Position numbers and translations under genes: made by a program. A DNA stretch of 64,000 nt, from contig SVKB01000011.1 of the NCBI GenBank assembly GCA_015068665.1, positions 4,858-68,857 on the forward strand, given 5' to 3'. The notes beneath the pieces are model-generated. The model did not search any database, was not told where the DNA came from, and saw nothing but the letters and a program-made list of their open reading frames with translations. This stretch comes from Oscillospiraceae bacterium. Lineage in GTDB: Bacteria > Bacillota > Clostridia > UMGS1840 > HGM11507. Position 1 is the first letter of the stretch. Every line of letters starts with the position of its first letter. Below, in pieces: positions 5,217 to 27,344 of the stretch.

Positions 5217-5245
5217 AATAAAACTCACCGAAAATATGATGTCGT

Positions 5246-5321: not shown

Positions 5322-5340
5322 TTTTTTTTAAACTTAATAT

Positions 5341-5448: not shown

Positions 5449-5745
5449 AATGAAATAAATCCTTTCAGGATTTGTGAAATACCCTTCGGGCGTGAAATAT
5501 TGCTTCGCAATATGAAATACGCCTTCGGCGTGTGATAAAGGATTTATTTTATTTCACAGAAAACTTTAGTTTTCTATTTCACAATTTACGAAGTAAATTA
5601 TTTCATATCAACGAAGTTGATATTTCATTAAATATTGACAATTCCACCTGTATGAAATATTGCTTCGCAATATGAAAAGGCACTAAACAAAAATTGTTTA
5701 GTGCCCGTAAGCCCGCAGGCGTATAAATAGATACGTCAAGGGTTT
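5449..5745. repeat. TGAAAT/ATTTCA dyad bead array plus R-like hairpin
   Basis: The word TGAAAT occurs at 5451, 5475, 5493 and 5513 (degenerate TGATAA at 5533), each followed by a different small hairpin (AAATCC..GGATTT, CCCTTCGGG, ATTGCTTCGCAAT, ACGCCTTCGGCGT). ATTTCA then occurs at 5551, 5576, 5600 and 5623 with other hairpins. The 25-nt TGAAATATTGCTTCGCAATATGAAA is duplicated at 5653. Confidence 0.8.
5674..5705 (-). terminator. Probable intrinsic terminator of typA
   Basis: 12-bp perfect stem GGCACTAAACAA/TTGTTTAGTGCC (5679-5705), followed on the minus strand by TTTTC. Confidence 0.55.
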
Positions 5746-9680: not shown

Positions 9681-9795
9681 AAACATCCCGCCTTTTTAAA
9701 TGGGAGAACCTTCCCCTTATAATACATATTCCATATAATGATACAAAAAATCCTCTTATTTGTCAATAGCTTTACTTAAATATGTATATATAAGT

Positions 9796-10686
9796 TTAAT
9801 GGTGATGATGGTGATGTCCCCTGTGACTAAAGTTATCAGTACGGCAGTTTTTAAAGGAACACTCCTCCCCCACTTCTTCAAGCTCTACGGTGACATGGGA
9901 AATCCCATGTTCCGAAAGCTCATTGCGGATTCTCTCTTTTATCACGGCAGACGGAGTATCAACAACCGCATGAAGGGTTGCAAAAACTTGCTGACCGTCT
10001 ATTGTCCATATATGAAGATGATGAATATCTGAAATTCCCTCTGTTTCTTTAAGATGGGATATAATTTCGTCATAATTAATGTTCTCGGGTGCCTTTTCAA
10101 GAAAAATACAGATTATTTCCTTAAGATTTTTAAAGGCATTTGTAAGAATAAAGATAGCCACACCCAGGGACATCAGCGGATCAAGAATCATAAGGTCGGT
10201 AAGCTTTATCACAATGGCCCCCACAAGAACAACCAGCCACCCCAGAACATCCTCAAGCATGTGAAGATTTACCGCCTTCTGGTTAAGAGAATCCCCCTCC
10301 CTCGTAAAAAATGCCGCAAGAGCGTTGACTAAAGCTCCCACCACGGCAAAAAGTATCATTCCGTCGTAATTTATGGGAACGGGATTAAAAATCCTTATAA
10401 CCGCATTTATAATAACGAAAAAAGATCCCACAATCAGAATAAGAGTGGAAAAAGCTCCCCCAAGCACCGAATATCTTCCGTAGCCGTAGGTATATTCCAC
10501 AGTGGGGTTTTTTTTACTTTTTCTTTCAAGAAAATAGGATATACCAATGCTTACCGCATCTCCGATATCATGAACCGAATCGGATACAATGGCAATGCTT
10601 CTTGTAAAAATTCCTCCGAAAAGCTCAAAGACCGAAAAGCACAGATTTAAAATAAAGGCAATAAAAATATTTTGCTGGGTTTTCAT
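9796..10686 (-). CDS. Cation diffusion facilitator (CDF) family metal efflux transporter
   Basis: 296 aa with 6 TM helices. Motifs SDSVHDIGD and HMLEDVLGW. Cytoplasmic C-domain ending in the His-rich tail HRGHHHHHH. Confidence 0.9.
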   Translation of the reverse strand: MKTQQNIFIAFILNLCFSVFELFGGIFTRSIAIVSDSVHDIGDAVSIGISYFLERKSKKNPTVEYTYGYGRYSVLGGAFSTLILIVGSFFVIINAVIRIFNPVPINYDGMILFAVVGALVNALAAFFTREGDSLNQKAVNLHMLEDVLGWLVVLVGAIVIKLTDLMILDPLMSLGVAIFILTNAFKNLKEIICIFLEKAPENINYDEIISHLKETEGISDIHHLHIWTIDGQQVFATLHAVVDTPSAVIKERIRNELSEHGISHVTVELEEVGEECSFKNCRTDNFSHRGHHHHHH

Positions 10687-10849: not shown

Positions 10850-11398
10850 ATGGACAGAAGGCAGAAAAAAACAAGGGAGGCAATATTCAAAGCCTTTACC
10901 TCTCTTTTATCCGAAAAGGATTATGAACATATTACGGTAGGGGAAATAATTGAAAATGCCGATGTGGGAAGGGCAACCTTTTATTCCCATTTTGAAACAA
11001 AGGATTTTCTTTTAAAGGAGCTTTGTGGCGAGCTTTTCTGCCATATTTTTGACGGAATATATGAAAAAAACGAGCATCATCATATTTTCACCTGTGATGC
11101 CCCCGATTCGGTATTTTTACATCTTTTTCAGCATCTGCAAAAAAACGACAATAACATTTTGGAGCTTCTTTCGGGCAAAAGCAATGAGCTTTTTTTCAGA
11201 TACTTTAAAAACAATCTTGTGGACCTGATAAAATGCCAGCTTCATCTGTTCTCCCATAAAAAAACCGAGGCACTTCCCGAAAGCTTTCTTGTAAACCATA
11301 TTGCCTCAACCTTTACCGAAACAATCCAGTGGTGGATAAGTAACGGAAAAAAGGAATCCCCCGAAACTATGACCGGGTATTTTTTTGCGGTAGTGTAA
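10850..11398 (+). CDS. TetR/AcrR family transcriptional regulator
   Basis: 182 aa. N-terminal HTH KTREAIFKAFTSLLSEKDYEHITVGEIIENADVGRATFYSHFETKD. Divergent from the CDF transporter gene. Confidence 0.9.
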   Translation: MDRRQKKTREAIFKAFTSLLSEKDYEHITVGEIIENADVGRATFYSHFETKDFLLKELCGELFCHIFDGIYEKNEHHHIFTCDAPDSVFLHLFQHLQKNDNNILELLSGKSNELFFRYFKNNLVDLIKCQLHLFSHKKTEALPESFLVNHIASTFTETIQWWISNGKKESPETMTGYFFAVV

Positions 11399-11872
11399 AA
11401 CCAGAAGTCAGGTGCGAAGGAAGGCAAGCATGACATATAAATGCAGAATTCAGAGTGCAGAATGCAAAATGATATGCCGCAGGCGGCATAGTGAATTGCA
11501 CCTTACGGTGCGTGAATTGTTATCTATTCGATAACATGAATTGATTTTTACAAATCATGAATTGTTGACTTATGTCAACATTAAGGATAGGACGGATATG
11601 CCATTCGGCATCCGTCCTTTTCTCGTTCCGCAGGAACATATCGAGTGCGAAGCACATATCGAGCAATTTTAATTGCATATCGAGTTTTGCCTTGGCAAAA
11701 CATATCGAAAATCCGAAGGATTTATATCTTATATCTCATCCCTCCTTTTCTTGTTCCGAAGGAACATATCGAGTGCGAAGCACATATCGAGCAATTTTAA
11801 TTGCATATCGAGTTTTGCTTTAGCAAAACATATCGAAAATCCGAAGGATTTATATCTTATATCTCATCCGCC
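11399..11872 (+). repeat. C composite repeat (AGGAA/TGCAGAAT words, TGAATTG bead array, P hairpin, tandem pair of CATATCGAG bead arrays)
   Basis: Starts at the tetR stop codon. TGAATTG occurs 4 times (11492-11570), separated by hairpins CACCTTACGGTG, TTATCTATTCGATAA, ATTTTTACAAAT and TTGACTTATGTCAA. P hairpin at 11589-11618 is followed by TTTTCTCG. The same composite recurs at 39831, 42364, 52326(-) and 62644(-). Confidence 0.85.
11618..11872 (+). repeat. Two tandem CATATCGAG bead arrays (period 128 nt)
   Basis: Each copy is hairpin TTCCNNNGGAA, CATATCGAG, TGCGAAGCA, CATATCGAG, CAATTTTAATTG, CATATCGAG, TTTTGCYTTRGCAAAA, CATATCGAA, AATCCGAAGGATT, then the tail ATATCTTATATCTCATCC. The first CATATCGAG is at 11637 in copy 1 and 11765 in copy 2. 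Confidence 0.85.
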
Positions 11873-13953: not shown

Positions 13954-14829
13954 CTATCTTGCCTTGGGATGGGCATTTTTATAAATCTGGGTAATACGGC
14001 TGTTGGTAAAGTTATTATAAATCTGGGTAGTGGAAATATCCTTATGCCCCAGCATCTGCTGAATGGACTTTAAATCCGCACCGTTCTGGATAAGGTGAGC
14101 CGCAAAGGAATGTCTTAAGGTATTTGGAGTTATCTCCTTTTTGATTCTGGCAGCCTTTACATATTCCTTTATAACCTTCCAGAAGCCCTGTCTTGTGATG
14201 GGCTGACCGTTCACATTTACAAAAATAAATCCCTCTTCGGTAAACATATTTTTATGCCTTTTTATATAAAGCTTTAAAATATCAATTGCCTCGTCGTGAA
14301 GGGGTATAACCCTCTTGGTGCCGTTGCCGCTGCAGGAAATATATCCCACCTTAATATTTATATCCTTGTTTTTAAGGCTGATAAGCTCGGAAACACGGAT
14401 TCCCGTAGCATACAAAACCTCGAGCATAGCCTTATCGCGAAGCCCCTTGAAGGTGGTGATATCCGGCTGGGAAAACAGCTTATCGATTTCACGCCCGGTA
14501 AGAACCCCGGGGATTTTTCTTACATTTTTATTGTATCTGATACCCTCCGAAGGATTGGTATCAATAACACTTTCATCATACAAAAAACCGTAAAATGCCT
14601 TCAGGGAGGCAACATTTCTTGAAACGGTGGAGGGAGCCTTACCAAGCTCTTTAAGATAGCTTAAATATTCATTAAGGTCATCCTTTTTTACCGTAAGGTA
14701 ATCTATACCGTTTTTCAAAACATATTCTTCATATTGCTTAAGATCCCGCCTGTAGGACATTAAGGTGTTTTCACTTAAATTTTTTTCCTCGTAGAGATAG
14801 TCTATAAACGAGGACAGCATTTCGTTCAT
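13954..14829 (-). CDS. xerD: Site-specific tyrosine recombinase XerD/XerC family
   Basis: SAM-like N-domain (FIDYLYEEKNLSENTLMSYRRDL) and catalytic-domain residues ...TGIRVSEL..., HTLRHSFAAHL, LGHKDISTTQIY. Start moved to the ATG at 14829 behind AGAGG. Housekeeping context (spoIIM-xerD-dac). Confidence 0.85.
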   Translation of the reverse strand: MNEMLSSFIDYLYEEKNLSENTLMSYRRDLKQYEEYVLKNGIDYLTVKKDDLNEYLSYLKELGKAPSTVSRNVASLKAFYGFLYDESVIDTNPSEGIRYNKNVRKIPGVLTGREIDKLFSQPDITTFKGLRDKAMLEVLYATGIRVSELISLKNKDINIKVGYISCSGNGTKRVIPLHDEAIDILKLYIKRHKNMFTEEGFIFVNVNGQPITRQGFWKVIKEYVKAARIKKEITPNTLRHSFAAHLIQNGADLKSIQQMLGHKDISTTQIYNNFTNSRITQIYKNAHPKAR

Positions 14830-14951
14830 TTTTAAACCTCTTTTGTTCTTATTAATCAACCAACCGACAACAATGAAAAAGCCTGTCTTTAAGCGGTTGA
14901 GGAGAGATAACTAAATTTTATGCTATTTATGGCGTTTTGTCAAGTATTATG

Positions 14952-15581
14952 TCAACTTTTGAAATACCATTTTAACAAATTACCCGTAAAGTATCCCTCC
15001 GAAAGGGCAAAAATCACCACAAACAGCAGAGCAAAAATAAAAACACCCATATAAAAAAGCAGATAATTCTTAAGATCAATACGGTATTTGATTTTGCCGA
15101 AAACAACCTTTAAAAGAGTCCCCGAAAGAGAAATTCCGTAGGTTGCCGTAACAAAATAAACGGGAATCAGAATAAGCCCCTGGCCAAAAATAATTATAAG
15201 GGAGGTAATGATTCCGCCCTTAAAATTGGTTATTAAAAAATTGGTGATAAGCCCCAGCACGAAGCCCTTTTTCATAACAGTGAAGAAAATAAGGGGAATT
15301 CCGATTACCGTAAAGCCCGAAAGCCATATAATAAGTAATCCGCTAAAGGAGGAGATAAAAGCATTTTTAAAAAGAAGAGTTGAATTGACCTCCTCGTTTA
15401 TATAAACCTCCCTTGCTTTTTCAAAAAAGTCGTATAAAAGTCTTACCTGGTCGGGAGAATAGCGGTTATAAATGTATGCTCCGCCAATTATACCAAGAGA
15501 AAAGAACACCGTAAGAAGTATATATGAAACGGGATTTTTGATTATATGCTCCCGTATTTTATCAGAAAGTAAATCAAGCAT
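14952..15581 (-). CDS. spoIIM: Stage II sporulation protein M
   Basis: 209-aa polytopic membrane protein. N-terminus LSDKIREHIIKNPVSYILLTVFFSLGIIGGAY and overall topology as in SpoIIM. Confidence 0.8.
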   Translation of the reverse strand: MLDLLSDKIREHIIKNPVSYILLTVFFSLGIIGGAYIYNRYSPDQVRLLYDFFEKAREVYINEEVNSTLLFKNAFISSFSGLLIIWLSGFTVIGIPLIFFTVMKKGFVLGLITNFLITNFKGGIITSLIIIFGQGLILIPVYFVTATYGISLSGTLLKVVFGKIKYRIDLKNYLLFYMGVFIFALLFVVIFALSEGYFTGNLLKWYFKS

Positions 15582-15611
15582 TTTTCCAACCTCCGTAAAC
15601 TTAGTTAATAA

Positions 15612-15640
15612 AGATTATGAAAAATGCCTGTAAAATATGA
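15612..15640 (-). promoter_or_regulatory. Possible sigma-E type promoter of spoIIM
   Basis: The minus strand reads TCATATT, 14 nt, CATAATCT, resembling the mother-cell sigma-E consensus (ATATT / CATACA-T). A weak call. Confidence 0.3.
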
Positions 15641-15647
15641 ATAAAAA

Positions 15648-15673
15648 GGGGCTGTAAATTTATTTACAGCCCC
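15648..15673 (-). terminator. Terminator hairpin GGGGCTGTAAAT-TT-ATTTACAGCCCC at the 3-prime end of S1
   Basis: 12-bp stem followed on the minus strand by TTTTTAT. The same hairpin occurs at 20147, 25006 and 53475. Confidence 0.7.
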
Positions 15674-15925
15674 TAAAACAATTCAGAGGGGATAGGAAAA
15701 AATCTTCAGAATGGATAAACTTAGCCAAAATCTTTGATTTTGGGTCACCCGAAGGCGTATTAGATACGTCGAGTGGCTAAGTTTATTCATAACCAAAAAC
15801 TTAAATTTTAAAGATTTTTCTAAAATCTTTACCTCTTTAATGGATAACTTGATAAGTTTCTCTATCAAAATCGTTGATACATCTTGTTTTTGGTGGTCTG
15901 GAGTTTTTTTACATTCCCGTTTTTA
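15674..15925 (-). repeat. S element copy 1 (body), 3-prime UTR of the 1291-aa gene
   Basis: Near-identical to 25032-25282 and inverse to 19870-20146. Contains nested hairpins (outer GGATAAACTTAGCC/GGCTAAGTTTATTC, AAAATCTTTGATTTT, CGTATTAGATACG, AGATTTTTCTAAAATCT, ACCAAAAAC..GTTTTTGGT). Confidence 0.85.
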
Positions 15926-15928
15926 ATA

Positions 15929-18900
15929 TTATTTTCCGATAAGAGCAAGCTCCTTAATATTCAGCCAGTAGTTAACAGAGTTACCCTTACCTACAATCTT
16001 TAAGTATCTTCCGGTTGCGTCAACCTTGAAGGTCTCAAAGTCTGTGGTTGCGCCTGAGGATTTTACATCCTTTGAAACTAAAGTCATATTATCCTTATCA
16101 TCACCCACATAAAGGTCAAAGGTATACACTCTCTTATCTCCTTGATGGAACATAAGATAGAGTTCTGATATATTCTTTTTGCTTCCAAGGTCTATTATTC
16201 CGTATGCCCCATCAGGCTTTGATTCGTCATAGGCAACACCCCAGCTTGTAGAAACTGTATTATCCACGGTGTTATCAATAATTGAGCCTGCGCCGTCATC
16301 CCCTGACTGAATAAGGTCGTAAATATCCAGTTCACCCGAAAGACCGTGAGGAGCAGGGAATCTTAAGCCTACTGCTCTTATGGTTACAATCTTTCTTACA
16401 TCATTCCAGCCAACCTCACAGCCGAAGGATTCAGAAATAAATCTTACCGGAACAACGAAACGACCGTCCTTAATCATTGCAGGAACATCTAAGGTAACGG
16501 GAGCACCGTTTACATAAGCGGTGGTGTTATTCTTGGTTATCTTAACCTCGGTTTCATCCTTTTTCGAGGTTGCGGTTTCAGTTGCCGCATCCCACATAAC
16601 CTCAGCACCGATTGCTTCGAAAATTGCACGCATCGGAACTAATGTTCTTCCGTTTTCGATAAAGGGATCAACATCGGATTCAAGCTGAAGATTATTAACG
16701 AAAACAGTTACCTTTGGTTCAGCTGTTGCCAAAAGCTTCTTTTCATATTCATCGTAGGTCAGTCTCGGGTCGTTAATAAGGAGAGTTGTTTTGGAAGAAG
16801 GATAGATACTCTGTAAGTATTCGGGATTACCGTTTTCCTTACCTACAGTAATGAATCTGTCCGCATTCTTAACACCCTCAACGCCGCCTATTGTCTGTGT
16901 TGCATAGATTTTATGAACGCCCTCATTAAGCAGTATTGTATATTCAAATTCATTGGTTTCGGGCTTAAGTGTTGCATTGTATGCCACATCGTCAACATAA
17001 ATTGTAACAGCAGTTGCACCCAGCTGATAAAGACCTGAAATTTTAACCTCTTTCACATCGGTTTTCTTATCACTCTTCGGATATACAATAACAGGAGCAT
17101 TAGGTCTCGCATTCTTTATGGAGCCGGTTATTCTTTCAGCAAGCTGTGCCTTATATAAGGAACGCGGCTCAACGGGAGTAAATTCAGCTTCCTTGTACGA
17201 ATCACCTACAAAAGGAGTTCCCTCCTTGGTTACAAAATGAGAATCCTTTGCATTATAGAATTCGGTTGTACGGTATATCTTTTTATAAGAGTTAACGTTT
17301 GACGTCTTCATATTAACTGAAGCTGCATCCTCATAAATACCCCATGCACCAACTAAAAAGTTCTGATAAGTATCAGGAACATCGTGAGCAACAATTGTAG
17401 AAGCAAGTGAGTTCCATACAAGTGAAGATGCCGCTGACCAGCCCTGGGATTTTGCAGTACCGTAAATACCTCTGTTTGCAAGAGCAATAAAGCCCTTTGA
17501 ACCGTTATTTATATGGAAAAGATTATCGTATAATACACCGGTTGACCAGGTTCCGTGAGTTTCGGATGCGGTATTTGAAGAGTCAACAACATTATCAACA
17601 TAAGCAATAGGGCCTGTAACACTTAAGCTTGTTTCAAAGTCGTGACGCCCGTCATAGGAATAGTTACCTGTGTATAAAACCTGCTCTGCGGAGGTTGATG
17701 CCGCAAAGGAATATCTTCTTGAACCTGCAACTGTGGAAACCGGATCTAAGCTTGAACAGCCCACAACCGAAATCTGCTTTGCATTTGCAGCAGATGACAC
17801 CAGTGACATATAGAAATGCTTTGCAGAAACATTTCTTACAAATATGTTTTTGGCATTGCTTATGGAAATAGCAGTTGTAGCGTGCTGTTCGTCACTAGGA
17901 TCGCCGTTATAGTAGGATACTATTCTTAAGTTATCAAGACCGGCGTTCTTAATCTTGCCTGAATCGTCAGTTTTATAAATATAGCTTTGTATATACTTCT
18001 TATCTGCGGGCAGGAACAGAGAATAATTAAGAGTAATTTCCGTACCGTTTATTGCGGTGATTATTCTCTCGCTCTTAGAGTCGAAATCTCCGCCTTTCCA
18101 GGAGGTATCGTCATCATAAACATTTAAAATCTTATCCATACCGATTGCCTTTGAAAGCTCAATGGTAGTCGGATTATAAACGGTAATATGGTCGCCAACT
18201 TTAAAGTTTTTGATATCCTCAGAGGACAGATTGATGGTTTTTGTACCTGCCTTGATATAATCATCGGTTATATTCGCACGCTCACCCTTTATAACAGGTG
18301 CCGAGCCCGTAATTCTTACAGGAATGTACTGAACCGGATCCTTTGCATAAAGAATTGTTCCGGTGGGGCCCTGACCTTCACCAAGAAGAACAATACCGCT
18401 CTTCAGACGGATACCCGATTTATTGATATTATAAGTACCTGCCTTAAGCTTTATAACCTTCATGCTGTCGTCAGGGGACTCATTATATACCTTGTCAATT
18501 GCCGACTGAAGCATACTTGTATCGTCAGCGGCACCTGTTGGAGAAAGCTCCATTGCAACAGGAAGCTTTGTAACATCGGGAAGCTCACATTCACCCATGT
18601 AGAAGCCTGCATAGGAAAAATCGCCGATTGTGTCGCCCTGCTCATTATAGGTATTATAAACAAGCTTATCGCCTACAGGAGCAACAAGTGTTGCAGGAAC
18701 AGGCTGAACCTGTTTCGGAGCAATATACGGATGCTCTACCTTTGGCGCAATATATATACCCTTTACGAATTTGAAATTATCAACATACCCGGTCTGAAGG
18801 GATGCCTTAACGGTATTAAGATATATTGATGCATACACCGCACCTGCAGGAGCAGTCTGGGAATTTGTTACGGTTGTCCAGGTTTTGTGTTCACCTTTGG

Positions 18901-19804
18901 TGGTCGAAACATTTGTCAGCTGCTTTTTATCTGCATCAAAGAACTTGAAGAAAACAGGAACAGAATTTTCAATGGCATAGATATCCACAACAGCTGTGTA
19001 TTTATTGCCGGGAGTAACCGGAATGAAAGGAGATGCAATGCCGCCTGCACCGGTATCACTTTTATCTTCAATGTATAAGCTGGACTTACCGTCCTTTGCA
19101 ACATCGGAGGAAATATTGACAACTACATTTCCCTGTTTTTTCCAGCCTTCGGGAAACTCTGTCCCCTCAAAGGATTCGGAAAGAATAACTTCACCGTCCT
19201 TATAATTATCGGGAACCACCTCTACCTTTGGAGCTTCCGGAATAGGAGGAGTCTTGACAGAAGAGGGGATATCCGCTTTAACATCACCGGTAAACACCTT
19301 AACATTGTCATAATAACCCACATGCTTGGTTTTTATATTTGTGCATAAAAGAACCTTTATGTGGTGTGTGTTTTCGGGTGCCACCTTGGTTAATTTAATT
19401 GTTTCCCACTTTTTTGTAACCTTAACAGCAGTCTGTACTGTTTCTAAGGTTTTGCCGTCAGCATCAAAAAATCTGAAATAAATCGGCATACTTCCCAGGG
19501 TTGAAAAAACATCACAGGTAAGTGTGTAGGTTTCGCCGGGAACAGCAGGAATTTCTTTTGATTTAAGACCCATTGAAAGAGTTTCGTCAGTATCATTTAC
19601 AAAATAGGATTTTGAACCGTGAGAATAGCCTTCATCGGAAACCTTATCGGTTTTCGATGCATCCTTTGACCAGTAATCCCATTTTTCAATTCCGTTTTCA
19701 AAGGAATCCTCGAAAATGGGAGCATCTGCAGCATAGCTTAAATTAAAAGCAGTCATAGAAAGAATCATGCTGAGTGCGATAATAAGGCAAAATATTTTTT
19801 TCAT
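15929..19804 (-). CDS. Giant secreted glycan-active protein: 2x CBM4/9-like modules, pectate-lyase-fold (beta-helix) domain, Ig-like region, copper-amine-oxidase-N-like domain, C-terminal F5/8 type C (discoidin) domain
   Basis: 1291 aa. Signal peptide MKKIFCLIIALSMILSMTAFNLSYA. Two paralogous roughly 150-aa modules (FEDSFENG..YYDNVKVF and SESFEG..YVDNFKFV). LQSAIDKVY...VIKLKAGTYNI is typical of the Pectate_lyase_3 fold. LVPMRAIFEAIGAEVMWD is a CuAO-N-like motif. Confidence 0.75.
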   Translation of the reverse strand: MKKIFCLIIALSMILSMTAFNLSYAADAPIFEDSFENGIEKWDYWSKDASKTDKVSDEGYSHGSKSYFVNDTDETLSMGLKSKEIPAVPGETYTLTCDVFSTLGSMPIYFRFFDADGKTLETVQTAVKVTKKWETIKLTKVAPENTHHIKVLLCTNIKTKHVGYYDNVKVFTGDVKADIPSSVKTPPIPEAPKVEVVPDNYKDGEVILSESFEGTEFPEGWKKQGNVVVNISSDVAKDGKSSLYIEDKSDTGAGGIASPFIPVTPGNKYTAVVDIYAIENSVPVFFKFFDADKKQLTNVSTTKGEHKTWTTVTNSQTAPAGAVYASIYLNTVKASLQTGYVDNFKFVKGIYIAPKVEHPYIAPKQVQPVPATLVAPVGDKLVYNTYNEQGDTIGDFSYAGFYMGECELPDVTKLPVAMELSPTGAADDTSMLQSAIDKVYNESPDDSMKVIKLKAGTYNINKSGIRLKSGIVLLGEGQGPTGTILYAKDPVQYIPVRITGSAPVIKGERANITDDYIKAGTKTINLSSEDIKNFKVGDHITVYNPTTIELSKAIGMDKILNVYDDDTSWKGGDFDSKSERIITAINGTEITLNYSLFLPADKKYIQSYIYKTDDSGKIKNAGLDNLRIVSYYNGDPSDEQHATTAISISNAKNIFVRNVSAKHFYMSLVSSAANAKQISVVGCSSLDPVSTVAGSRRYSFAASTSAEQVLYTGNYSYDGRHDFETSLSVTGPIAYVDNVVDSSNTASETHGTWSTGVLYDNLFHINNGSKGFIALANRGIYGTAKSQGWSAASSLVWNSLASTIVAHDVPDTYQNFLVGAWGIYEDAASVNMKTSNVNSYKKIYRTTEFYNAKDSHFVTKEGTPFVGDSYKEAEFTPVEPRSLYKAQLAERITGSIKNARPNAPVIVYPKSDKKTDVKEVKISGLYQLGATAVTIYVDDVAYNATLKPETNEFEYTILLNEGVHKIYATQTIGGVEGVKNADRFITVGKENGNPEYLQSIYPSSKTTLLINDPRLTYDEYEKKLLATAEPKVTVFVNNLQLESDVDPFIENGRTLVPMRAIFEAIGAEVMWDAATETATSKKDETEVKITKNNTTAYVNGAPVTLDVPAMIKDGRFVVPVRFISESFGCEVGWNDVRKIVTIRAVGLRFPAPHGLSGELDIYDLIQSGDDGAGSIIDNTVDNTVSTSWGVAYDESKPDGAYGIIDLGSKKNISELYLMFHQGDKRVYTFDLYVGDDKDNMTLVSKDVKSSGATTDFETFKVDATGRYLKIVGKGNSVNYWLNIKELALIGK

Positions 19805-19837
19805 ACAGTGTCTCCTTTTTATAATATTTACATATTA

Positions 19838-19866
19838 ATTATCATATATAGACCTCCATTTGTCAA
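19838..19866 (-). promoter_or_regulatory. Sigma-A promoter of the 1291-aa gene
   Basis: The minus strand reads TTGACA (19866-19861), 17 nt, GATAAT (19843-19838), about 35 nt upstream of the ATG with the AAGGAG SD. Confidence 0.55.
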
Positions 19867-19869
19867 GCA

Positions 19870-20146
19870 AAAAATGGGGATGTAAAAAAACTCCAGACCA
19901 CCAAAAACAAGATTTATCAACGATTTTGATAGAGAAACTTATCAAATTAGCCGTCGAAGAGCTATCCGACGGCTAACTATTAAAAAGGTAAAGATTTTAG
20001 AAAAATCTTTAAAATTTAAGTTTTTGGTTATGAATAAACTTAGCCGCTCGACGTATCTAATACGCCTTCGGGTGACCCAAAATCAAAGATTTTGGCTAAG
20101 TTTATCCATTCTGAAGATTTTTTCCTATCCCCTCTGAATTGTTTTA
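19870..20146 (+). repeat. S element copy 2 (body), inverted relative to copies 1 and 3
   Basis: Reverse complement of the S1/S3 body. Carries an additional 22-nt TA-flanked palindrome at 19951-19972. Confidence 0.85.
19951..19972. mobile_element. Minimal TA-flanked palindromic insertion (fused MITE ends)
   Basis: TA-GCCGTCGAAGAGCTATCCGACGGC-TA. It is absent from the equivalent position of S1 and S3 (which have a single TTA there). Its sequence equals the outer part of the 52536-52809 MITE terminal repeats. Confidence 0.5.
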
Positions 20147-20182
20147 GGGGCTGTAAATAAATTTACAGCCCCATTTTTTATA
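20147..20182 (+). terminator. Terminator hairpin of S2 (GGGGCTGTAAAT-AA-ATTTACAGCCCC + ATTTTTTAT)
   Basis: The hairpin plus T-tract reads on the plus strand, convergent with the 1560-aa gene whose stop is at 20186. Confidence 0.6.
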
Positions 20183-20185
20183 TTT

Positions 20186-23100
20186 CTATATTTCGGGAGT
20201 AAAATTAATTATATTTTCTCCGTAAAGTGTTATATTTTCTCCGTCGAAACCTTCATATTCCGCAAATGGCAGTGCATAGCAGGTTACCCCGGGACGGATT
20301 TTCGAGCCAAAAAATCTTATGCCGTACTGACCTTCGGGACCGATTGCCTCGCCGTACGCCTTTACGGTATTTTCATTATTCTCAAACTCACTCTTTGATA
20401 TATTTTCAAAAGAAAGCATAACTCCGTATCTTATACGGGTATAACCGCCGTCTTCTCCTGCTCTTGCAAAGACTATACCTACAGGGGCAGTAATTTCCTT
20501 ACCCTCAAAGGTGAAGGTATCGGTCTGTGAAAATACCTTGTCAAAGCCTTTAAACAAATTCTCCGTATTAAACTCCTCCGCTTCTCCCGAGAAGGACATT
20601 TCATATATTGTAAGGGTACAGCCTGCGCCTAAATTTGCACCCCAGGCGGTTGTAGCGGTAGATGCTGCGTTTGTTCCGTTCCTCTTTATAACCTTTATTT
20701 CTATATACTTTGCCCTGACCGAATCAAGAGGAATTGAAACAAATTCTCCGTTGTTTGCCGCCACCTTCGGACGGATAGTGCCAAGATCAGTCCAGTCCTT
20801 ATTGTTTTCAGACACTCTTACATTAAAATCAACCCACTTGTTGGTGTAGCCATAGTTAAGATTTACTGCATCGAGAGTATAAATCTTATCAAGAGTTACA
20901 GACCAATACTGATTACTGTTATAGGTTGCATCGAGACCGTATGTTGTAACATTACCCGAGCTTGCATAATCAATATAAGAGCCGCTTGCCGCTGTTAATA
21001 TGCCGTCCGAGAACAGGTCCTTGTCAAGAACGGTGGTTTTATATTCCGAGGAAGTTTTATAGTTTGTGTATTTTGTAACCGAAATTTCCGAAACTGTTGC
21101 TTTTTTAGCCATAAGTCCATAGGTTACCTTGCCGTCAGTTTTTATCATTTCATAAAATACACCCATGGAATCCTTCAGCTGATATTTTCCTGATGGCGCC
21201 TCTGAGCTTTCGGGCAAGGTAAGAAGCGAATAATAATCGCCCTCAGTTTTTCCGTAAACAGCAGTATCATTATCACCAAGGCTTCCTATAAAGTCAGCCT
21301 CGCTGTTACCCTTAAATTCACAGTCGGTAAAGCTTGAATTAACTATCGAATAATCGGAGGCAAGGGTCCAGTTTGCAAGCACCAGATCCTCACGGGTCGG
21401 TCTGTTTGTAACCATATCGAAGGTACAGTTATTAAAGTTAAGCTTAAAGGTTGCATACTCGGTGGTATGATTGGAGGCAACTCTGCCTATAAGAGAAACG
21501 GAGGTTGCTCCCTCGGAAAATCCGAAATCAACATTGTTAAAATTAAAAGTTAGGGTTTTAGGGCTTCCCTGAGTATAGCTTCCTGCCTTTGCAATGTATA
21601 AAAATCCGTGAATTTTCGACAAAAGCTTACCGTTTTTAACCTCTATAACACCGCTTGTGGGCACAACACTTCCGGAGGAATCATTGGAATTTCCCGTTGC
21701 AGTATTGCAAAGACTTTCCAGTGCCCCCAGTGTTTTACCGTTTAAATCAAGAGTAATCTTGGTTTTAACACTGCTTGTTCCTGATGGGTAACCGGTATCT
21801 GCCCAGTCTCTTCTTAAATATACCACCGCTTCTTCAGCCGGTGCTGCAAGTGACGATTTTGTGAGATTTATAGCAGCATTCATAGCCGTTTTATATGTTC
21901 CGAAGCCTTGCGAGAACTGATAACTGCCTCCCGACGCCTTACTGAATAAAGCAAAGGGATATACCTCTTCATCGGAATATTCCGCAGGAATTTCACCGTA
22001 GGGGGTTAAAATCCTGTTGGTTTCCTTTAAGCTGTATTCATAGGTAAGCTTGTTATCCGTGTAATTACCTAAGATAAGATATTTTCCGTTGTCACTTACA
22101 AATACAAGCTCCGAAGGATAGCTTTCATCCGAATTAAGCACTATTTTTGTATATTCTTCGTTTGTATTCTTACCAAAGTACACTCCGTCGCCATCGGTTA
22201 AGGAGGAGAATGCTATATCCGCTTCATTTGCACCGATAATTTTTCCGCCCTTAAAGGTAACCGATGCATCAACCTTATTATAGGTATCCGCCGCACCAAC
22301 ATTTTTATCAAGCTTTGCAATATATGCTCCGTCAGGAGCTCCCTTCATATCTATAACACAGTTATTGAAGGTCATATCATATTTAAAATCAGGTGTGGAG
22401 GAGGTTAAATTACTTGCAATGTTAAGATGCATTAAAAGAGAGGCTGCAGTACCTGCTTCTCCGTAGGAAACGGAAACATTCTCAAAATTAAATATATATC
22501 CTCTGCCTGCCACAGTATTTTCAGCCTTTACCTGTGCGTAGAACATACCGTAGGTGGTGTTACAGTAAAGCTTACCGTTTTTGATATTTATATAGGTTTC
22601 TCCGCCCTTGCCCGATGAAAAATCAGCATTACCCGTATTCATAAGGGCAGTACCGTAGGAAAGGGAAAAGCCGTTTAAATCAAAAGTAAGTGTACCGCCG
22701 ATTGCTGAGGAGGTATATAAATCACTGAAGGAAAAGTCTCTTCTTAAAAGAACAACCGCTTCATCCTCCTTTGTTGCCCCGCTTGCACCGTTTATATAGC
22801 CTGCTGCTCCCGAAAGAGCTGATTTCCAGGCACCGTAGCCTGCCACGAAGGTATAATTTTCTTCATCTTTATTTTTCTTAAATACCGCTAAGGGATAATC
22901 CCGGGAATCAGAATATGAAGACGGAATAACACCGTATGAGGTGGTAACATCTCCTTTTGCAACAAGGCTGTAAACCTTATTTGCCCCACTTACCTCCCCT
23001 GTCGGCTTAAGACCAAGAGACACCTGTGAGCCGTTATCAATACCGTTAAAGGCTTTTTCATAGTTTCCTTCGGGAAGAATTACTCTGCCGAAGGCTCCGT

Positions 23101-24868
23101 CCTCGCCCTTTATAAAGGCTACAGAGTCCCCCGATGCACTTAACTGTGCACCAAGATTAGCCTCGCTTTTTGCGATAAATTCACAGTCTTTAAAGGAAAT
23201 ATCATAATTTGATGTGCATTTATCGGTTGCAGGATTATTTGTATTTAAAACACCAAAGGAGGCATCTGCCTTTGCATTGGTGGAAAGGTCTAAAGTACAG
23301 TTATTAAGATTAATATCAAAATTTGCCTCAAGTGAGGAGGTATAATTCCTGTCGGTTACTATAAGGTCGTTATAGTTTGAAGCCTTTGAGGTGTAATCCT
23401 GATAAAAGCCTAAATTTACATTGTCAAAGTTTATCTCAAAGCTTTTGACTTTAGTATAGGTTGAGCCGGAGGTGTTGTAGATAACCCCGTAATTACCAAG
23501 CTTAAGATTACCGTTTTTGATATTTATAACACATTTTTTCTGAGCTGTCTCCCCTGTTTCCATACAATCGTCAACATCGGTTCTTATAAGGGTGATTGTA
23601 GGTGCAAGAGTATGACCGTTTAAATCAATTGTGATTTTTCCGCCCACATCGGACATATTGGAGGGATAATTATTATGTGCAAAGTCTTTTGTAACATAAA
23701 CAACTGCCTCAGCCGTTACAGGCGCCGATGCCAGCGTTAAAGCTCTTGCACGTTCCAATGCAAGCTTAATAGTATCAAAGCTTCCGTCATAAGTGTATGT
23801 TTTACCGTCGTTATTTAATTTGAATACCGCAAGAGGAAGATCCCTGTTTTCATAGGGAATAAAACCGTATTTAGTGGAAATATCGGTAACCGAATTAATT
23901 CTTTCAACCAGTTTTTCACCTATCATCTGCTGGGTTATGGAGTCGTAATGCCAGCCATCCTGCTGATAGGGCTCACGGTGAAGCCCGGTAACAGGGTCGG
24001 TAAGATCGGTGGTGGTATCTATCATAAATACATTTTTAAGATTTTTTGCATTAACCGCATCCTGTGCTGCCTGGACAACGGAAATATAAGGGGTTGCATC
24101 GGTATAGGGTGCTCCGGTATCAGGATTGATACCGGGATTTCTTAAAACCCTGCCGTAGACAAAAGGAAGCTCTGAGCAGTTTATGCCGGTAATTTCACCT
24201 ATATCCCCTCTCATATCCGATATAAGAGTTTCAAGAAGCTCCTGATAACAGCTTGCAGGAGTGGAGCTGAAGGTATCTGCCTCGCCCTGCATATACCATA
24301 TTCCCTTTATGACCGGTGTATATCCCTTATCTTTAAGCCTGTCTATACCGTATTTTATTTTTTTCATAAAGGTAAGATACAAATCCCCTACCTTGTTGGA
24401 ATCGGTTTCAATATTGTGCTTTTTTATATATGAAGGAGGGGTCCATGTGCCGTACTTTTTGGATTCGTTACTGGAGGTATTATTATAAAGAGAGGTATTT
24501 CCCCATGCCACCTTGATAATGGCATTTTCCGATTCATCCTCCATAAGAGCAGTTGCAATACCTATTTCCGCACCTGTTCTTGTAGCACTTGATTTTGTTT
24601 TTGTAAACGCAGTATCGGTCGTTCCCATATACCAGACATTTTCCGAGCCTGCCTCAAGCATGGACTTATATTCTACATATTGGGAGTCTGAAGGATAATT
24701 GGACCACATAGCATATCCCATAGCATTACTTTGCCCTGCAATAAGCCATACATTTATCCTGTTATCTCCATCTGCTTCAGCCACATTGGCAAAAGCACCG
24801 GTAAAGGAAAAACCTCCAAGACTAATAACAATGGATAAAGCTAAAAGGCAACATAAAAATTTTTTCAT
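20186..24868 (-). CDS. Giant secreted protein: N-terminal SGNH/sialate-O-acetylesterase-like domain, three ~311-aa internal repeats, C-terminal discoidin-like domain
   Basis: 1560 aa with a signal peptide. NVWLIAGQSNAMGY is the GQSN esterase motif. Repeats start at aa 334, 645 and 957 with YG(F/V/E)IP..Y...(D/E)..YP(L/F)A(V/L)F. A late region (WSVTLDKIYTLDAVNLNYG...RAKYIEIKV) is discoidin-like. Confidence 0.75.
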   Translation of the reverse strand: MKKFLCCLLALSIVISLGGFSFTGAFANVAEADGDNRINVWLIAGQSNAMGYAMWSNYPSDSQYVEYKSMLEAGSENVWYMGTTDTAFTKTKSSATRTGAEIGIATALMEDESENAIIKVAWGNTSLYNNTSSNESKKYGTWTPPSYIKKHNIETDSNKVGDLYLTFMKKIKYGIDRLKDKGYTPVIKGIWYMQGEADTFSSTPASCYQELLETLISDMRGDIGEITGINCSELPFVYGRVLRNPGINPDTGAPYTDATPYISVVQAAQDAVNAKNLKNVFMIDTTTDLTDPVTGLHREPYQQDGWHYDSITQQMIGEKLVERINSVTDISTKYGFIPYENRDLPLAVFKLNNDGKTYTYDGSFDTIKLALERARALTLASAPVTAEAVVYVTKDFAHNNYPSNMSDVGGKITIDLNGHTLAPTITLIRTDVDDCMETGETAQKKCVINIKNGNLKLGNYGVIYNTSGSTYTKVKSFEINFDNVNLGFYQDYTSKASNYNDLIVTDRNYTSSLEANFDINLNNCTLDLSTNAKADASFGVLNTNNPATDKCTSNYDISFKDCEFIAKSEANLGAQLSASGDSVAFIKGEDGAFGRVILPEGNYEKAFNGIDNGSQVSLGLKPTGEVSGANKVYSLVAKGDVTTSYGVIPSSYSDSRDYPLAVFKKNKDEENYTFVAGYGAWKSALSGAAGYINGASGATKEDEAVVLLRRDFSFSDLYTSSAIGGTLTFDLNGFSLSYGTALMNTGNADFSSGKGGETYINIKNGKLYCNTTYGMFYAQVKAENTVAGRGYIFNFENVSVSYGEAGTAASLLMHLNIASNLTSSTPDFKYDMTFNNCVIDMKGAPDGAYIAKLDKNVGAADTYNKVDASVTFKGGKIIGANEADIAFSSLTDGDGVYFGKNTNEEYTKIVLNSDESYPSELVFVSDNGKYLILGNYTDNKLTYEYSLKETNRILTPYGEIPAEYSDEEVYPFALFSKASGGSYQFSQGFGTYKTAMNAAINLTKSSLAAPAEEAVVYLRRDWADTGYPSGTSSVKTKITLDLNGKTLGALESLCNTATGNSNDSSGSVVPTSGVIEVKNGKLLSKIHGFLYIAKAGSYTQGSPKTLTFNFNNVDFGFSEGATSVSLIGRVASNHTTEYATFKLNFNNCTFDMVTNRPTREDLVLANWTLASDYSIVNSSFTDCEFKGNSEADFIGSLGDNDTAVYGKTEGDYYSLLTLPESSEAPSGKYQLKDSMGVFYEMIKTDGKVTYGLMAKKATVSEISVTKYTNYKTSSEYKTTVLDKDLFSDGILTAASGSYIDYASSGNVTTYGLDATYNSNQYWSVTLDKIYTLDAVNLNYGYTNKWVDFNVRVSENNKDWTDLGTIRPKVAANNGEFVSIPLDSVRAKYIEIKVIKRNGTNAASTATTAWGANLGAGCTLTIYEMSFSGEAEEFNTENLFKGFDKVFSQTDTFTFEGKEITAPVGIVFARAGEDGGYTRIRYGVMLSFENISKSEFENNENTVKAYGEAIGPEGQYGIRFFGSKIRPGVTCYALPFAEYEGFDGENITLYGENIINFTPEI

Positions 24869-24901
24869 TGTATCTTCCCCCGATTATATTATTTCAGTGT
24901 C

Positions 24902-24930
24902 ATTATAACAAATAAAATAAAAAGATTCAA
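24902..24930 (-). promoter_or_regulatory. Sigma-A promoter of the 1560-aa gene (extended -10)
   Basis: The minus strand reads TTGAAT (24930-24925), 17 nt, TATAAT (24907-24902), with TG at -15/-14. Confidence 0.55.
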
Positions 24931-25005
24931 TTGGATTATTATTCGGTGGATTGGACTATCGTGTAAATTACAAATTACCAACGTCCTTCATTTCTCAATA
25001 AAAAA

Positions 25006-25031
25006 GGGGCTGTAAATTTATTTACAGCCCC
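25006..25031 (-). terminator. Terminator hairpin at the 3-prime end of S3 (terminates rny transcript)
   Basis: GGGGCTGTAAATTTATTTACAGCCCC followed on the minus strand by TTTTTTATT. Confidence 0.7.
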
Positions 25032-25282
25032 TAAAACAATTCAGAGGGGATAGGAAAAAATCTTCAGAATGGATAAACTTAGCCAAAATCTTTGATTTTG
25101 GGTCACCCGAAGGCGTATTAGATACGTCGAGTGGCTAAGTTTATTCATAACCAAAAACTTAAATTTTAAAGATTTTTCTAAAATCTTTACCTTTTTAATG
25201 GTTAATTTGATAAGTTTCTCTATCAAAATCGTTGACACATCTTGTTTTTGGTGGTCTGGAGTTTTTTACATTCCCGTTTTTA
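25032..25282 (-). repeat. S element copy 3 (body), 3-prime UTR of rny
   Basis: Begins 1 nt after the rny stop codon. Its shadow ORF 25041..25238 differs from the S1 shadow ORF 15683..15868 at only 2 of 60 codons. Confidence 0.85.
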
Positions 25283-25283
25283 T

Positions 25284-26840
25284 TTATTTTGCATAATCTA
25301 CAGCCCTTGTTTCTCTTACGACATTAACCTTAATCTGTCCCGGATATTCAAGCTCGCTTTCGATTTTTTCTGCGATTTCTCTTGCAACCACAATCATTGT
25401 TTCATCATTGATATCATCAGGCTTAACCATAATTCTGATTTCTCTGCCTGCCTGGATTGCAAAGGATTTTTCAACGCCCTTGAAGGAGGATGAAATTTCC
25501 TCAAGCTTCTCTAAACGTTTAACATAGGTTTCAATATTTTCTCTTCTTGCGCCCGGTCTTGCAGCGGAGATTGCATCAGCTGCCTGAACGATGCATGCAA
25601 TAACTGTTTCAGGCTCTGCATCACCGTGATGGGACATAATAGAGTTTAAAACGACCTGATCCTCATGATATTTCTTGGCAATATCCGCACCAATCATAAC
25701 GTGAGAGCCTTCTATTTCGTGAGTTGAAGCCTTGCCTATATCGTGAAGTAAGCCTGCTCTTTTAGCCATAACAACGTCAACGCCTAATTCTGCGGCAATA
25801 ATTCCCGATATATGAGCAACTTCAATTGAATGCTTAAGAACATTCTGACCGTAGCTTGTTCTGTACTTAAGTCTTCCGAGAAGCTTGATAAGCTCGGGGT
25901 GAAGACCATGAACGCCAACCTCGAAGGTAGCGGATTCACCGGCTTTTTTAATGGTAGCATCAACCTCTTTCTGAGCCTTTTCAACCATTTCTTCAATTCT
26001 TGCAGGATGAATACGGCCGTCCGAGATAAGCTTTTCAAGTGCAAGACGGGCAACCTCACGTCTGACAGGATCGAAGGAGGAAAGGATAACTGCTTCGGGA
26101 GTATCGTCAATGATAACATCAACCCCTGTTGCGGTTTCTAAGGTTCTTATGTTTCTTCCTTCTCTTCCGATAATTCTTCCTTTCATTTCATCGCCGGGAA
26201 GGGATACTGTGGAAACTGTAACCTCAGCAACGTGATCGGATGCACATCTCTGAATAGCAGATGTGATAATGTTTCTTGCCTTTTCGTCAGCAACCTCTTT
26301 TGTTTCTTCTTCAATTTCCTTGATTTTAACAGCAGCGGCAACTCTGACTTTTTCTTCGATATTTTTCAGTAGGTATGTTTTTGCTTCTTCAGCGGTCAGT
26401 CCCGAAATCTTTTCAAGAAGCTCCAACTGTCTTCTCTGGATTTCAGCAACATATTCTTCTTTTTCTTCTAACTGCTTCTGCTTGTCTTTTAAATTTTCTT
26501 CTCTTGACTCAAGGTTTTCAAGCTTTTTATCAAGATTTTCTTCCTTTTGCAGAAGTCTTTTTTCCTGTTTTTGGATTTCTCCGCGACGTTCCTTGATTTC
26601 CTTATCAAGCTCTGATCTGCTCTTATGTATTTCGTCTTTAACCTCTAAAAGCTTCTCTTTTTTCATGTTTTCAACGGTTTTATAAGAGTCGTTAACAATT
26701 CTTTTTGCTTCTTCTTCAGCGCTTTTAATCTGGCTTTCCGCAATCTTTTTACGGTAGGAAATACCGAGTCTGAAAGCTATTAAGCCAACAACCAAAGCAA
26801 CACCGGCGGCGATTCCAATCATTATAAACGGATTATTCAT
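25284..26840 (-). CDS. rny: Ribonuclease Y
   Basis: N-terminal TM helix, long coiled coil, KH domain ([12 protein letters not shown]) and HD domain (HSIEVA...LLHDIGK). Start moved to ATG 26840 (MNNPF) behind GGGAGGTG; the track start at 26909 is an extension. Confidence 0.95.
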
Positions 26841-27129: not shown

Positions 27130-27316
27130 GCGGGAACCGTCGCCACAGCCTTCTCCTTGAGGAGAAGGTGTCAGCGATAGCTGACGGATGAGGTGTAAGA
27201 TATAAATCCCTACGGGATTTTCGATATGTTTTGCTAAAGCAAAACTCGATATGCAATTAAAATTGCTCGATATGTGCTTCGCACTCGATATGTTGCCTTT
27301 CGGCAACGAGAAAAAG
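27130..27316 (-). repeat. CATATCGAG bead array plus V module (inverse orientation on plus strand)
   Basis: The plus strand shows V (GCCTTCTCCTTGAGGAGAAGGTG-TCAGCGATAGCTGA-CGGATGAGGTG, 27148-27195). It is followed by AAATCCCTACGGGATT, TTCGATATG, TTTTGCTAAAGCAAAA, CTCGATATG, CAATTAAAATTG, CTCGATATG, TGCTTCGCA, CTCGATATG, TTGCCTTTCGGCAA. Confidence 0.85.
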
Positions 27317-27344
27317 AACCGACGATAGTAGCATGTCGGTTCTT
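27314..27344 (-). terminator. Intrinsic terminator of the BMP lipoprotein gene
   Basis: AAGAACCGAC-loop-GTCGGTTCTT followed on the minus strand by TTTCTCG, which is also the first word of the bead array. Confidence 0.6.

Follow-up and report, generated by a model that had tools for sequence, protein, structure and literature searches.

The S repeats and the genes around them

The 64-kb window analysed here, which is the whole of a 64,000-nucleotide (nt) stretch of contig SVKB01000011.1 of an Oscillospiraceae bacterium, contains three copies of a folded intergenic repeat, S, behind and between the genes for two large surface proteins. As judged from sequence comparison, the three are nearly identical local copies of one subfamily (S) of a dispersed superfamily, made up of S and X-type elements, that is non-coding, structured and abundant in this uncultured Clostridia lineage. 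All four genes at the locus are on the minus strand. They are rny (25284–26840, its start re-assigned to MNNPF), the gene for a 1560-amino acid (aa) SASA-esterase/F5_F8 protein (20186–24868), the gene for a 1291-aa CBM_4_9/Cu_amine_oxidN1/F5_F8 protein (15929–19804) and spoIIM (14952–15581). S1 (15648–15925, minus strand) follows the 1291-aa gene and S3 (25006–25282, minus strand) follows rny, both in sense orientation, and S2 (19870–20182, plus strand) is inverted.

The original prediction, made from the sequence alone, had three copies in these orientations with a common terminator, S1 and S3 as direct repeats and S2 in inverse orientation between the two large genes, and all of this is borne out by repeat search and alignment. 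S1 and S3 form a direct repeat of 288 nt at 95% identity (15643–15930 and 25001–25288), and S2 (19870–20178) pairs inversely with both, over 204–205 nt at 98–99% and a further 94–95 nt at 85–91%. On the 3′ side of the three-way alignment about 205 consecutive columns are identical.

Each copy consists of a body of ~231 nt, as defined by the boundaries of the family (mutual identity of S1, S2 and S3, 97.0–98.3%), and a 3′ appendix outside the repeat family. The body of S1 (15688–15918, minus strand, 231 nt, GGGAATGT...CCTATCCCC) starts 10 nt past the TAA (15929–15931) of the 1291-aa gene and that of S3 (25046–25275, minus strand, 230 nt) 8 nt past the TAA (25284–25286) of rny; the unit repeated between S1 and S3 begins 1–4 nt from these stops. 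The appendix of S1 (15643–15687, minus strand) comprises a 14-nt spacer, a terminator hairpin at 15648–15673 and a T-tract, and that of S3 (25000–25045, minus strand) has the same parts with its hairpin at 25006–25031. The body of S2 (19876–20132, plus strand, 257 nt) is oriented oppositely to all four flanking genes. It is longer because of a 24-nt insertion with TA/TA flanks (19950–19973; 19950–19975 with the TA duplication), in which the two termini of a 274-nt MITE (miniature inverted-repeat transposable element), present in full at 52536–52809, are joined. The S2 appendix (20133–20180, plus strand) again has the spacer, the same terminator hairpin (20147–20172) and a T-tract, with the hairpin starting 13 nt past the TAG that ends the convergent 1560-aa gene.

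The T-rich 5′ end of S2 is 10 nt from the −35 box of a promoter-like site for the 1291-aa gene (19838–19866, minus strand; TTGACA-17-GATAAT, 11/12 matches), which is thus just outside S2. A second promoter-like site, TTGAAT-17-TATAAT with a TG (24902–24930, minus strand), precedes the 1560-aa gene downstream of the S3 terminator. Promoter-like matches in the region number 36, with 30.5 expected, and so do not exceed chance.

A dispersed superfamily

A covariance model of the 149-nt 3′ domain (R1), built from S copies only, scores the cores of S1 (15688–15835) and S2 (19985–20132) at 172.5 bits each and that of S3 (25046–25193) at 174 bits. The conserved 27-nt S core recurs at five other sites in the window. 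The other R1 matches in the window are four X-type elements scoring 61–96 bits and an interrupted X-type copy at 33525–33636 (25.5 bits), and the window has eight S/X copies; a further 33 R1 matches are in the loci of relatives. The highest-scoring X-type element (51927–52186, plus strand, core match 52037–52178, 96.3 bits) has the same architecture as S, and its 5′ end overlaps the TAG (51928–51930) of a 756-aa AraC-type gene. That at 43040–43262 (minus strand, core match 43040–43165, 72.7 bits) starts ~5 nt past the stop (43268) of a 904-aa Cu_amine_oxidN1 gene. The element at 33157–33384 (plus strand, core match 33259–33384, 65.3 bits) comes after the RNase J gene, whose stop is at 33142–33144, and beyond it, as far as ~33880, there are more copies, tandem or interrupted. 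The last (62034–62269, plus strand, core match 62143–62269, 61 bits) overlaps with its 5′ end the TAA (62035–62037) of a YycI-like gene. X-type elements have the logic of the termini, the closing stems and the core in common with S, but differ from it in sequence.

When one genome per GTDB species was scanned with a degenerate pattern of the core, 29 stretches were returned. About 22 of these are contigs of a single Clostridia metagenome-assembled genome (MAG), JAZOMN01, which is a different species (its shared genes have ~76–79% nucleotide identity), and others are in MAGs labelled Clostridia, Acutalibacteraceae or Eubacteriales. A few matches in Streptomyces and a proteobacterium do not fit the S model. 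The same pattern had one match in a metagenome contig collection and none in a viral contig collection, and a BLAST search with S2 had no match in plasmids and phages. At the gathering score Rfam 15 has no family in S or X (the whole window reaches that score only for tRNAs and Gut-1), and scans of 15000–26000 and 51900–53000 at an E-value threshold gave sub-threshold matches only.

Thirteen full S-like copies from relatives align end to end with S1–S3. In this 16-copy alignment the family boundaries are sharp (GGGGATGT...CCTATCCCC; in relatives homology begins at (G)GGGATGT), and identity is 97–98% among S1–S3 versus a mean of 82% among the copies of relatives. Full elements are ~230–260 nt and reduced forms ~105–130 nt. 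The covariance search that had been proposed as a check has turned up relatives both in the window and, more than 30 of them, in related Clostridia MAGs. S is not a device peculiar to the two giant genes, as members of the same superfamily are behind RNase J, AraC-type, YycI, FtsW, ADH, YqeY and other genes.

A fold maintained by compensatory change

The two termini of the element pair to form a closing stem, P0 (GGGGAUGU..CUCCAGA / UCUGAAG..CCUAUCCCC), and there is a second long-range stem, P0b (GCAAAAAGU / ACUUUUUGC; in the window ACCAAAAAC / GUUUUUGGU). The 5′ region is variable and tolerates insertions. The conserved 3′ domain comprises hairpin Pa, a 15-bp stem P1, the P2/P3 core and hairpin P4, where P2 is CACUCGA / UCGGGUG and P3 is CGUAY-NUN-RUACG. 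Within it the 27-nt P2/P3 core CUCGAYGUAY-NUN-RUACRCCUUCGGG, with a conserved U.G pair, is invariant.

RNAalifold applied to the 16 copies gives 71 pairs, with compensatory double changes in 23 and few broken cells. Pairing in the S core extends to 98.8% of cells, and double changes affect 10 pairs (28 cells); these values were reached in none of 500 shuffles, and sliding the partners reduces pairing to 24–46%. Among 37 distinct S/X cores, 96.3% of cells are paired, a figure somewhat inflated by the fitting of that alignment to the model's structure, and 30 of the 42 pairs show double changes (229 cells), with 23–47% paired in the slid controls. The inner part of P2 never covaries, and the U.G pair is kept in 33 of 35 copies. 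Fold z-scores across S and X elements range from −3.1 to −9.6; against dinucleotide shuffles S1 has z = −6.6 and S2 z = −9.6. S/X thus has the stable fold, kept by compensatory changes, that is expected of a structured repeat.

When read on the sense strand, the paired positions include 73 G.U cells and 11 A.C cells. This is the direction predicted for RNA folded from the sense strand, and not for the antisense strand or duplex DNA, and the asymmetry is supportive of a sense-strand RNA fold without being decisive.

A coding role was considered for the only open reading frame (ORF), which has 37 codons and spans the core, and rejected: its start codon is lost in one relative (L029) and its frame broken in another (L039), and the core substitutions are compensatory in stems and do not preserve the reading frame. 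A K-turn was also rejected, there being no G.A pairs after the 3-nt bulge.

Position relative to stop codons

In 22–23 of ~33 evaluable copies the core starts 62–114 nt after the stop codon of a long ORF that is co-oriented with it. This distance corresponds to the 5′ arm plus a gap of 0–15 nt, and so applies to about two thirds of copies; three more copies are the second units of tandem arrays. In the window the stop-adjacent copies are S1 (gap 10 nt), S3 (gap 8 nt) and every first X copy, and in several X copies the element's first base adjoins the stop codon. The suggestion that S1 and S3 are long structured 3′ untranslated regions (UTRs) is strengthened by this placement and by the G.U cells of the sense strand, and they may well be such.

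The upstream genes are functionally unrelated (RNases, transporters, FtsW/RodA, ADH, YqeY, solute-binding proteins), which speaks for a generic 3′-UTR or intercistronic element rather than a regulon-type riboswitch. Both orientations occur in one window, each following the local gene, and therefore replication-strand bias is not the explanation.

Several copies in relatives end 20–30 nt before a ribosome-binding site (RBS) and start codon. That feature, with the conserved sequence core and complex fold, would favour S being instead a cis-regulatory leader, riboswitch-like or an attenuator, acting on the gene downstream, which is spoIIM in the case of S1 and the 1560-aa gene in that of S3. However, what is downstream is inconsistent (terminators, convergent genes, gene starts) whereas what is upstream, a stop codon, is consistent. 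Within the window a strong terminator and then a separate promoter come after each copy, and with functionally unrelated neighbouring genes and more than 20 copies per genome, a leader role is scarcely credible.

The adjacency to stop codons was the only reason for considering integron attC sites, which were rejected. The order of the RYYYAAC...GTTRRRY core sites misfits on both strands, the 230-nt length compares with 57–141 bp for attC, and the nearby integrase-family gene is the xerD-like gene at 13954–14859, which is syntenic with spoIIM in all relatives examined. SECIS- or PYLIS-like recoding was rejected as well, because all three stop codons are used and further in-frame stops are immediately after them. 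RNase J and RNase Y, the two major Firmicute mRNA-decay RNases encoded in the window, both have genes that directly precede S/X members; given the abundance of the elements this may be coincidence.

A portable terminator

Each S copy is followed by the same 14-nt spacer, the 12-bp hairpin GGGGCTGTAAATAAATTTACAGCCCC and T5–6. In all three copies the hairpin has an 11–12-bp stem with six G-C pairs, a 4-nt loop and five or six T's on the S-sense strand. In a terminator scan these three hairpins are the best-scoring terminator-like sites of the region, and in the S sense the 3′ appendix has the G+C-rich hairpin and U-tract of an intrinsic terminator. On the opposite strand, which is that of the 1560-aa gene, the S2 hairpin is followed by the tail UAAAACAA (TAAAACAA) and is a poor terminator. 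It is therefore plausible that transcription of the 1560-aa gene reads through antisense S2 and on into the 1291-aa gene.

The exact hairpin is found four times in the window (versus 0 expected), and its fourth occurrence, a solo 26-nt hairpin without an S body, is at 53475–53500 between two co-oriented minus-strand genes. The identical hairpins act as a small repeat of their own. In relatives the S copies stop at CCTATCCCC and their 3′ flanks then vary from copy to copy. Three (L015, L025 and L033) are followed by another, itself repeated, terminator hairpin (GTGTTTAAAAA...TTTTTAAACAC), and five (L013, L018, L024, L029 and L031) have an RBS and ATG start codon within 20–30 nt of the S end. 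[The GTGTTTAAAAA...TTTTTAAACAC hairpin is a recurring terminator module of the related MAG, where it is behind three S copies.] Since the 3′ flanks vary and the hairpin occurs alone, the terminator-tipped unit is a composite, assembled locally from an S body, a spacer and the portable hairpin, and has been duplicated as a block in this species. The original view of S as a self-contained, terminator-capped unit has accordingly to be given up: the terminator is outside the S family and is common to S1–S3 through local attachment.

This also affects the idea that each S copy is an independent small RNA (sRNA) gene of the RsaE/RoxS type, with a C-rich seed (CCUAUCCCC), a terminator and an internal or adjacent promoter. 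The Rfam RsaE model (RF01820) does align, at E = 0.026–0.073, to the final 93 nt of each copy, within which both UCCUAUCCCCUCUG and the terminator fall, and S2, without a co-oriented upstream gene, would need a promoter of its own. But the scores are 30.7–32.9 bits against a gathering cut-off of 79, and the match rests on the terminator that is outside the family. The C-rich tract is the 3′ strand of P0 and covaries with the 5′ terminus, X-type relatives are without it, and many copies run directly into the RBS of the next gene. There is no conserved promoter inside or upstream of the orphan copies, where promoter-like matches are at chance: a promoter scan of the region found no convincing promoter for an independent S2 RNA, and no conserved −35/−10 pair is present inside or upstream of S, the conserved linker being explained by P0b pairing. 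An sRNA gene is, on this evidence, improbable. RsaE and RoxS have two or more unpaired conserved C-rich motifs; S has one tract, and it is paired.

Occupancy in relatives and turnover

Contigs of the same species from several metagenomes are 99.8–100% identical to the window, and most break inside S copies. Where they continue past S, the reference order is seen: rny-S3-1560 (L008), 1560-S2-1291 (L050 and L051), 1560-S2-start of 1291 (L053) and 1291-S1-spoIIM (L001 and L002), with L050 continuing through S1 to spoIIM. In one further contig (L052:2395–2813) a 739-aa gene without a Pfam match is joined via an S copy to the 1560-aa gene and the 3′ flank of S3. The S copy there, 15 nt after the TAG stop of the 739-aa gene, has private single-nucleotide differences in its 5′ arm and reveals a fourth S copy in the species; either the assembler switched contigs within the identical core, or the join is a real recombinant.

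Recombination between S copies, with 97–98% identity over 230 nt, is physically possible. Direct and inverted copies bracket each of the two surface-protein genes, and the S elements might be kept as substrates for inverting, deleting or amplifying them, with phase or antigenic variation as the outcome. The L052 join, and the varying gene content of the locus (in one relative, L042, SASA and spoIIM are neighbours and the 1291-aa gene is missing, and in another, L063, the gene pair is elsewhere), go in the same direction. But the reference order is found in the other same-species contigs cited, L052 is equally explained by an assembler switch inside a 150-nt identical repeat, and that join apart no deletion or inversion allele was seen in same-species contigs extending past S copies. 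Patterns for deletion and inversion junctions had no matches in the metagenome contig collection, which evidently lacks this species; the same pattern does match the L008 locus. An inversion would separate a gene from its own promoter-terminator arrangement only trivially, no invertase is adjacent (the xerD-like gene, as noted, is syntenic with spoIIM), and switching is implausible for the dozens of housekeeping genes behind which the family is found. The recombination switch is not supported, and we regard it as very improbable.

The related genomes, whose comparison had also been proposed, include close relatives without S after rny and without S2. Two rny orthologues, at 91% and 87% amino-acid identity (L061 and L062), have plain terminators and no S. 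In a third relative (L060; rny 89%), a P0-like hairpin remnant (9566–9620), GAGGCGTAAAAATTG...CAATTTTTCCTGCCTC, is 5 nt past the rny stop; it is an X-type closing stem with the whole interior gone. After it come a bidirectional terminator and then a reversed S-like copy with a nested MITE, whose end is ~30 nt away from where the next gene starts, a configuration like that of S2. In L042 SASA is separated from spoIIM by a 157-nt spacer with a plain terminator, without the 1291-aa gene and without S, and an X element is upstream, after nrdR. In L063 the SASA gene and a gene for a 1292-aa protein are adjacent with no S between them, and two X elements come directly after the stop of the latter. 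A reduced element of ~130 nt that keeps the P2/P3 core is right after the stop of the 1291-aa gene orthologue in L064, and no element is behind this orthologue in L065. From these comparisons S2 and S3 are specific to this lineage, and the site behind the 1291-aa gene has some superfamily member in three species.

Dispersed intergenic copies whose occupancy varies between relatives are characteristic of structured repeats, and with its tandem arrays, nested MITEs, mini-copies and near-identity within a genome the family behaves like a mobile or recombining repeat. One mini-S of 107 nt (L015:676–782), 25 nt upstream of a gene start, has kept both termini and lost the core by deletion between two AAGATTTTT repeats.

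These properties bring in the possibility that S is a selfish, MITE-like element acting at the DNA level, without an RNA role, whose stems are inverted repeats for mobilisation and whose placement reflects tolerated insertion sites. It has imperfect terminal inverted repeats (TIRs) of ~22 nt (GGGGATGTTAAAAAACTCCAGA versus the reverse complement of TCTGAAGCTTTTTTCCTATCCCC), a length of 230–257 nt, below 500 bp, many copies and no conserved ORF. It is present or absent at orthologous sites, its mini-copies are internally deleted with both termini kept, it is nested with another MITE, and its copies within a genome are near-identical. On the other side, 13 copies examined have no target-site duplications, and conservation is highest in the internal P2/P3 core and not at the termini, which differ between S and X; this is the opposite of what a TIR-recognising transposase would lead one to expect. 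The internal helices covary extensively, the G.U excess over A.C (73 versus 11) is that of one strand, and orientation tracks the local gene on both strands of the window. A purely DNA-level element is for these reasons unlikely, if not greatly so. The ends of IS200/IS605 elements and omega-RNA were considered and rejected, with no TnpA or TnpB nearby.

A probable structured module of the upstream gene's mRNA

The explanation that we consider best, and probably correct, is that S is a structured module of the mRNA of the upstream gene, within a dispersed and locally duplicated superfamily. Because most copies start 0–15 nt past a co-oriented stop, S would be transcribed within the upstream gene's mRNA and would serve there as a bulky structured 3′-UTR or intercistronic module; at this locus the S unit would have been duplicated together with the portable terminator, a 26-nt hairpin. 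Transcripts of rny and of the 1291-aa gene would then end in S plus terminator, giving a bulky, protected 3′ end that may resist exonucleases, and the same combination may insulate spoIIM and the 1560-aa gene, the latter with a promoter-like site of its own. S2 is an inverted orphan copy of a minority class and cannot be a 3′-UTR.

Several points weigh against this explanation. Co-transcription, 3′-end protection and insulation are inferences; for the first the evidence is indirect, namely the sense orientation behind stop codons and the excess of G.U over A.C. About seven copies, including S2 and those in L016, L033 and L035, are not behind a co-oriented gene, so 3′-UTR placement is not obligatory; the reversed copy in L060 is also among the exceptions. 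Stop-codon adjacency could in part come from short intergenic spacers. Two positions give most of the G.U cells, which were possibly inherited rather than repeatedly selected, and the pairing among the 37 cores is, as stated, inflated. As to dispersal, no direct repeat of 2–9 bp is present in the flanks of the 13 full copies, and the loci retrieved, in which no systematic search for one was made, showed no partner transposase and no autonomous element sharing the termini of S.

A more specific proposal can be offered tentatively, and is rather doubtful: that S/X is a previously undescribed class of functional RNA, in which an invariant 27-nt core is set in a variable multi-helix scaffold whose base stem is 0–15 nt past the stops of dozens of unrelated genes per genome, and which is either coupled to termination or the site of a mobilisation enzyme. 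Speculatively, a ribosome terminating at the stop would melt the 5′ strand of the base stem P0 and so free its C-rich 3′ strand. Termination upstream could therefore couple to 3′-end formation, to processing by an RNase (Y or J) or to expression of the next cistron. Alternatively, the core might be the recognition site of a mobilisation enzyme that binds RNA or single-stranded DNA.

For the locus itself, the outcome is that no bespoke three-part device has been built around two surface-protein genes; an ordinary genome-wide repeat and a portable terminator are present there. S/X is absent from Rfam, and with ~40 sequenced examples, strong covariation and unusually strict post-stop placement it is a tractable candidate for studying the effect of structured 3′-UTR repeats on mRNA 3′-end formation and decay in Firmicutes (RNase Y/J, PNPase). 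It is also a candidate for the study of repeat spread without target duplications, of genome rearrangement and of broken metagenome assemblies.

Other repeats in the window

The host lineage is one of uncultured Clostridia in which other repeats of the hairpin-array kind abound, among them the orphan Gut-1 motif. The second miniature element of the window, the 274-nt MITE at 52536–52809, has 25-nt TIRs (GCCGTCGGAGAGCTATCCGAACTCG) and TA/TA flanks, which are a target duplication of the IS630/Tc1-mariner type. It is also found at ~33602–33763 (inverted), at 19950–19973 and in a relative (L060:~9750–10020), nested in X- and S-type elements; the extra hairpin in S2 is its 24-nt collapsed copy, consisting of the termini only.

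Arrays of short, variable hairpins with constant 7–9-nt linkers (CATATCGAG, ATGAATTG, GTGATATT) fill many intergenic regions, at 11397–11870, 27193–27320, 38636–38920, 39835–40295, 41443–41565, 42357–42620, 42790–42960, 52313–52530, 52812–52900 and 62340–62940. They recur in both orientations at 85–100% identity, and the same arrays are present in relatives (L021:1–120, L063:40–330 and L064:4500–4790). Gut-1 RNA (RF01706), at 5448–5523, scores 70.2 bits against a cut-off of 50 and comes directly after five tRNA genes (4977–5416). Its design, a hairpin plus a constant linker (GUGAAAU), is that of the hairpin arrays of the window. Gut-1 has been described from human-gut metagenomes only and has no known function (PMC2864571).

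Comparison with known elements

S/X is a new family, but the kind of element to which it belongs, the MITE-, BOX- or bcr1-like structured intergenic repeat, is a known one; its stop-codon adjacency is unusual. Its closest known counterparts, the bcr1, BOX/SPRITE, ERIC, REP/BIME and Correia-type elements (reviewed in PMC3184786), work in a similar way but have no sequence in common with it. The only Rfam model to match at E < 0.1 is that of RsaE/RoxS, with which S shares a C-rich tract, UCCUAUCCCCUCUG, followed by an intrinsic terminator. Unlike RsaE/RoxS, S reaches 33 bits against the cut-off of 79, has a single C-rich tract that is base-paired and a terminator that is outside the family, and is from a lineage other than Bacillales.

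The Correia (nemis) elements of Neisseria are, like S, miniature and bounded by TIRs, and the Correia RNA hairpin is co-transcribed; they can supply promoter or terminator functions and alter the expression of neighbours. They have TA target duplications and conserved 26-bp TIRs, whereas in S/X the termini vary by subfamily and it is the internal core that is conserved.

REP/BIME and ERIC sequences are co-transcribed palindromes in 3′-UTRs or between cistrons, where they can stabilise or destabilise the upstream mRNA (PMC3184786). REP is a G+C-rich single hairpin of ~35 nt that is mobilised by RAYT, and ERIC a single imperfect palindrome of 127 bp, whereas S is a 230-nt, multi-helix, A+U-rich element of Clostridia. 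Liang, Rudd and Deutscher reportedly found in 2015 that many E. coli REPs are no more than ~15 nt away from a stop codon and can influence the termination of translation.

The BOX, SPRITE and RUP elements of Streptococcus pneumoniae are modular, structured, transcribed intergenic repeats, and SPRITE is a repeat resembling a Rho-independent terminator that is biased to gene 3′ ends (PMC3184786). The S window is similar in having a repeated hairpin both attached and solo. In S, by contrast, the terminator is a neighbour that can be separated from the element; S is not built of boxA/B/C modules and has no similarity in sequence to these repeats.

The bcr1 repeat of the Bacillus cereus group is, like S/X, a Firmicute intergenic repeat of 150–300 nt without an ORF, whose occupancy varies between close relatives. 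It is transcribed with its neighbours and has a multi-helix RNA fold kept by compensatory changes (PMC3184786). bcr1 has 5-bp direct repeat flanks, of a kind not found for S, and there is no sequence similarity between the two; S/X, for its part, has a tight adjacency to stop codons and an invariant internal 27-nt core, neither of which has been described for bcr1.

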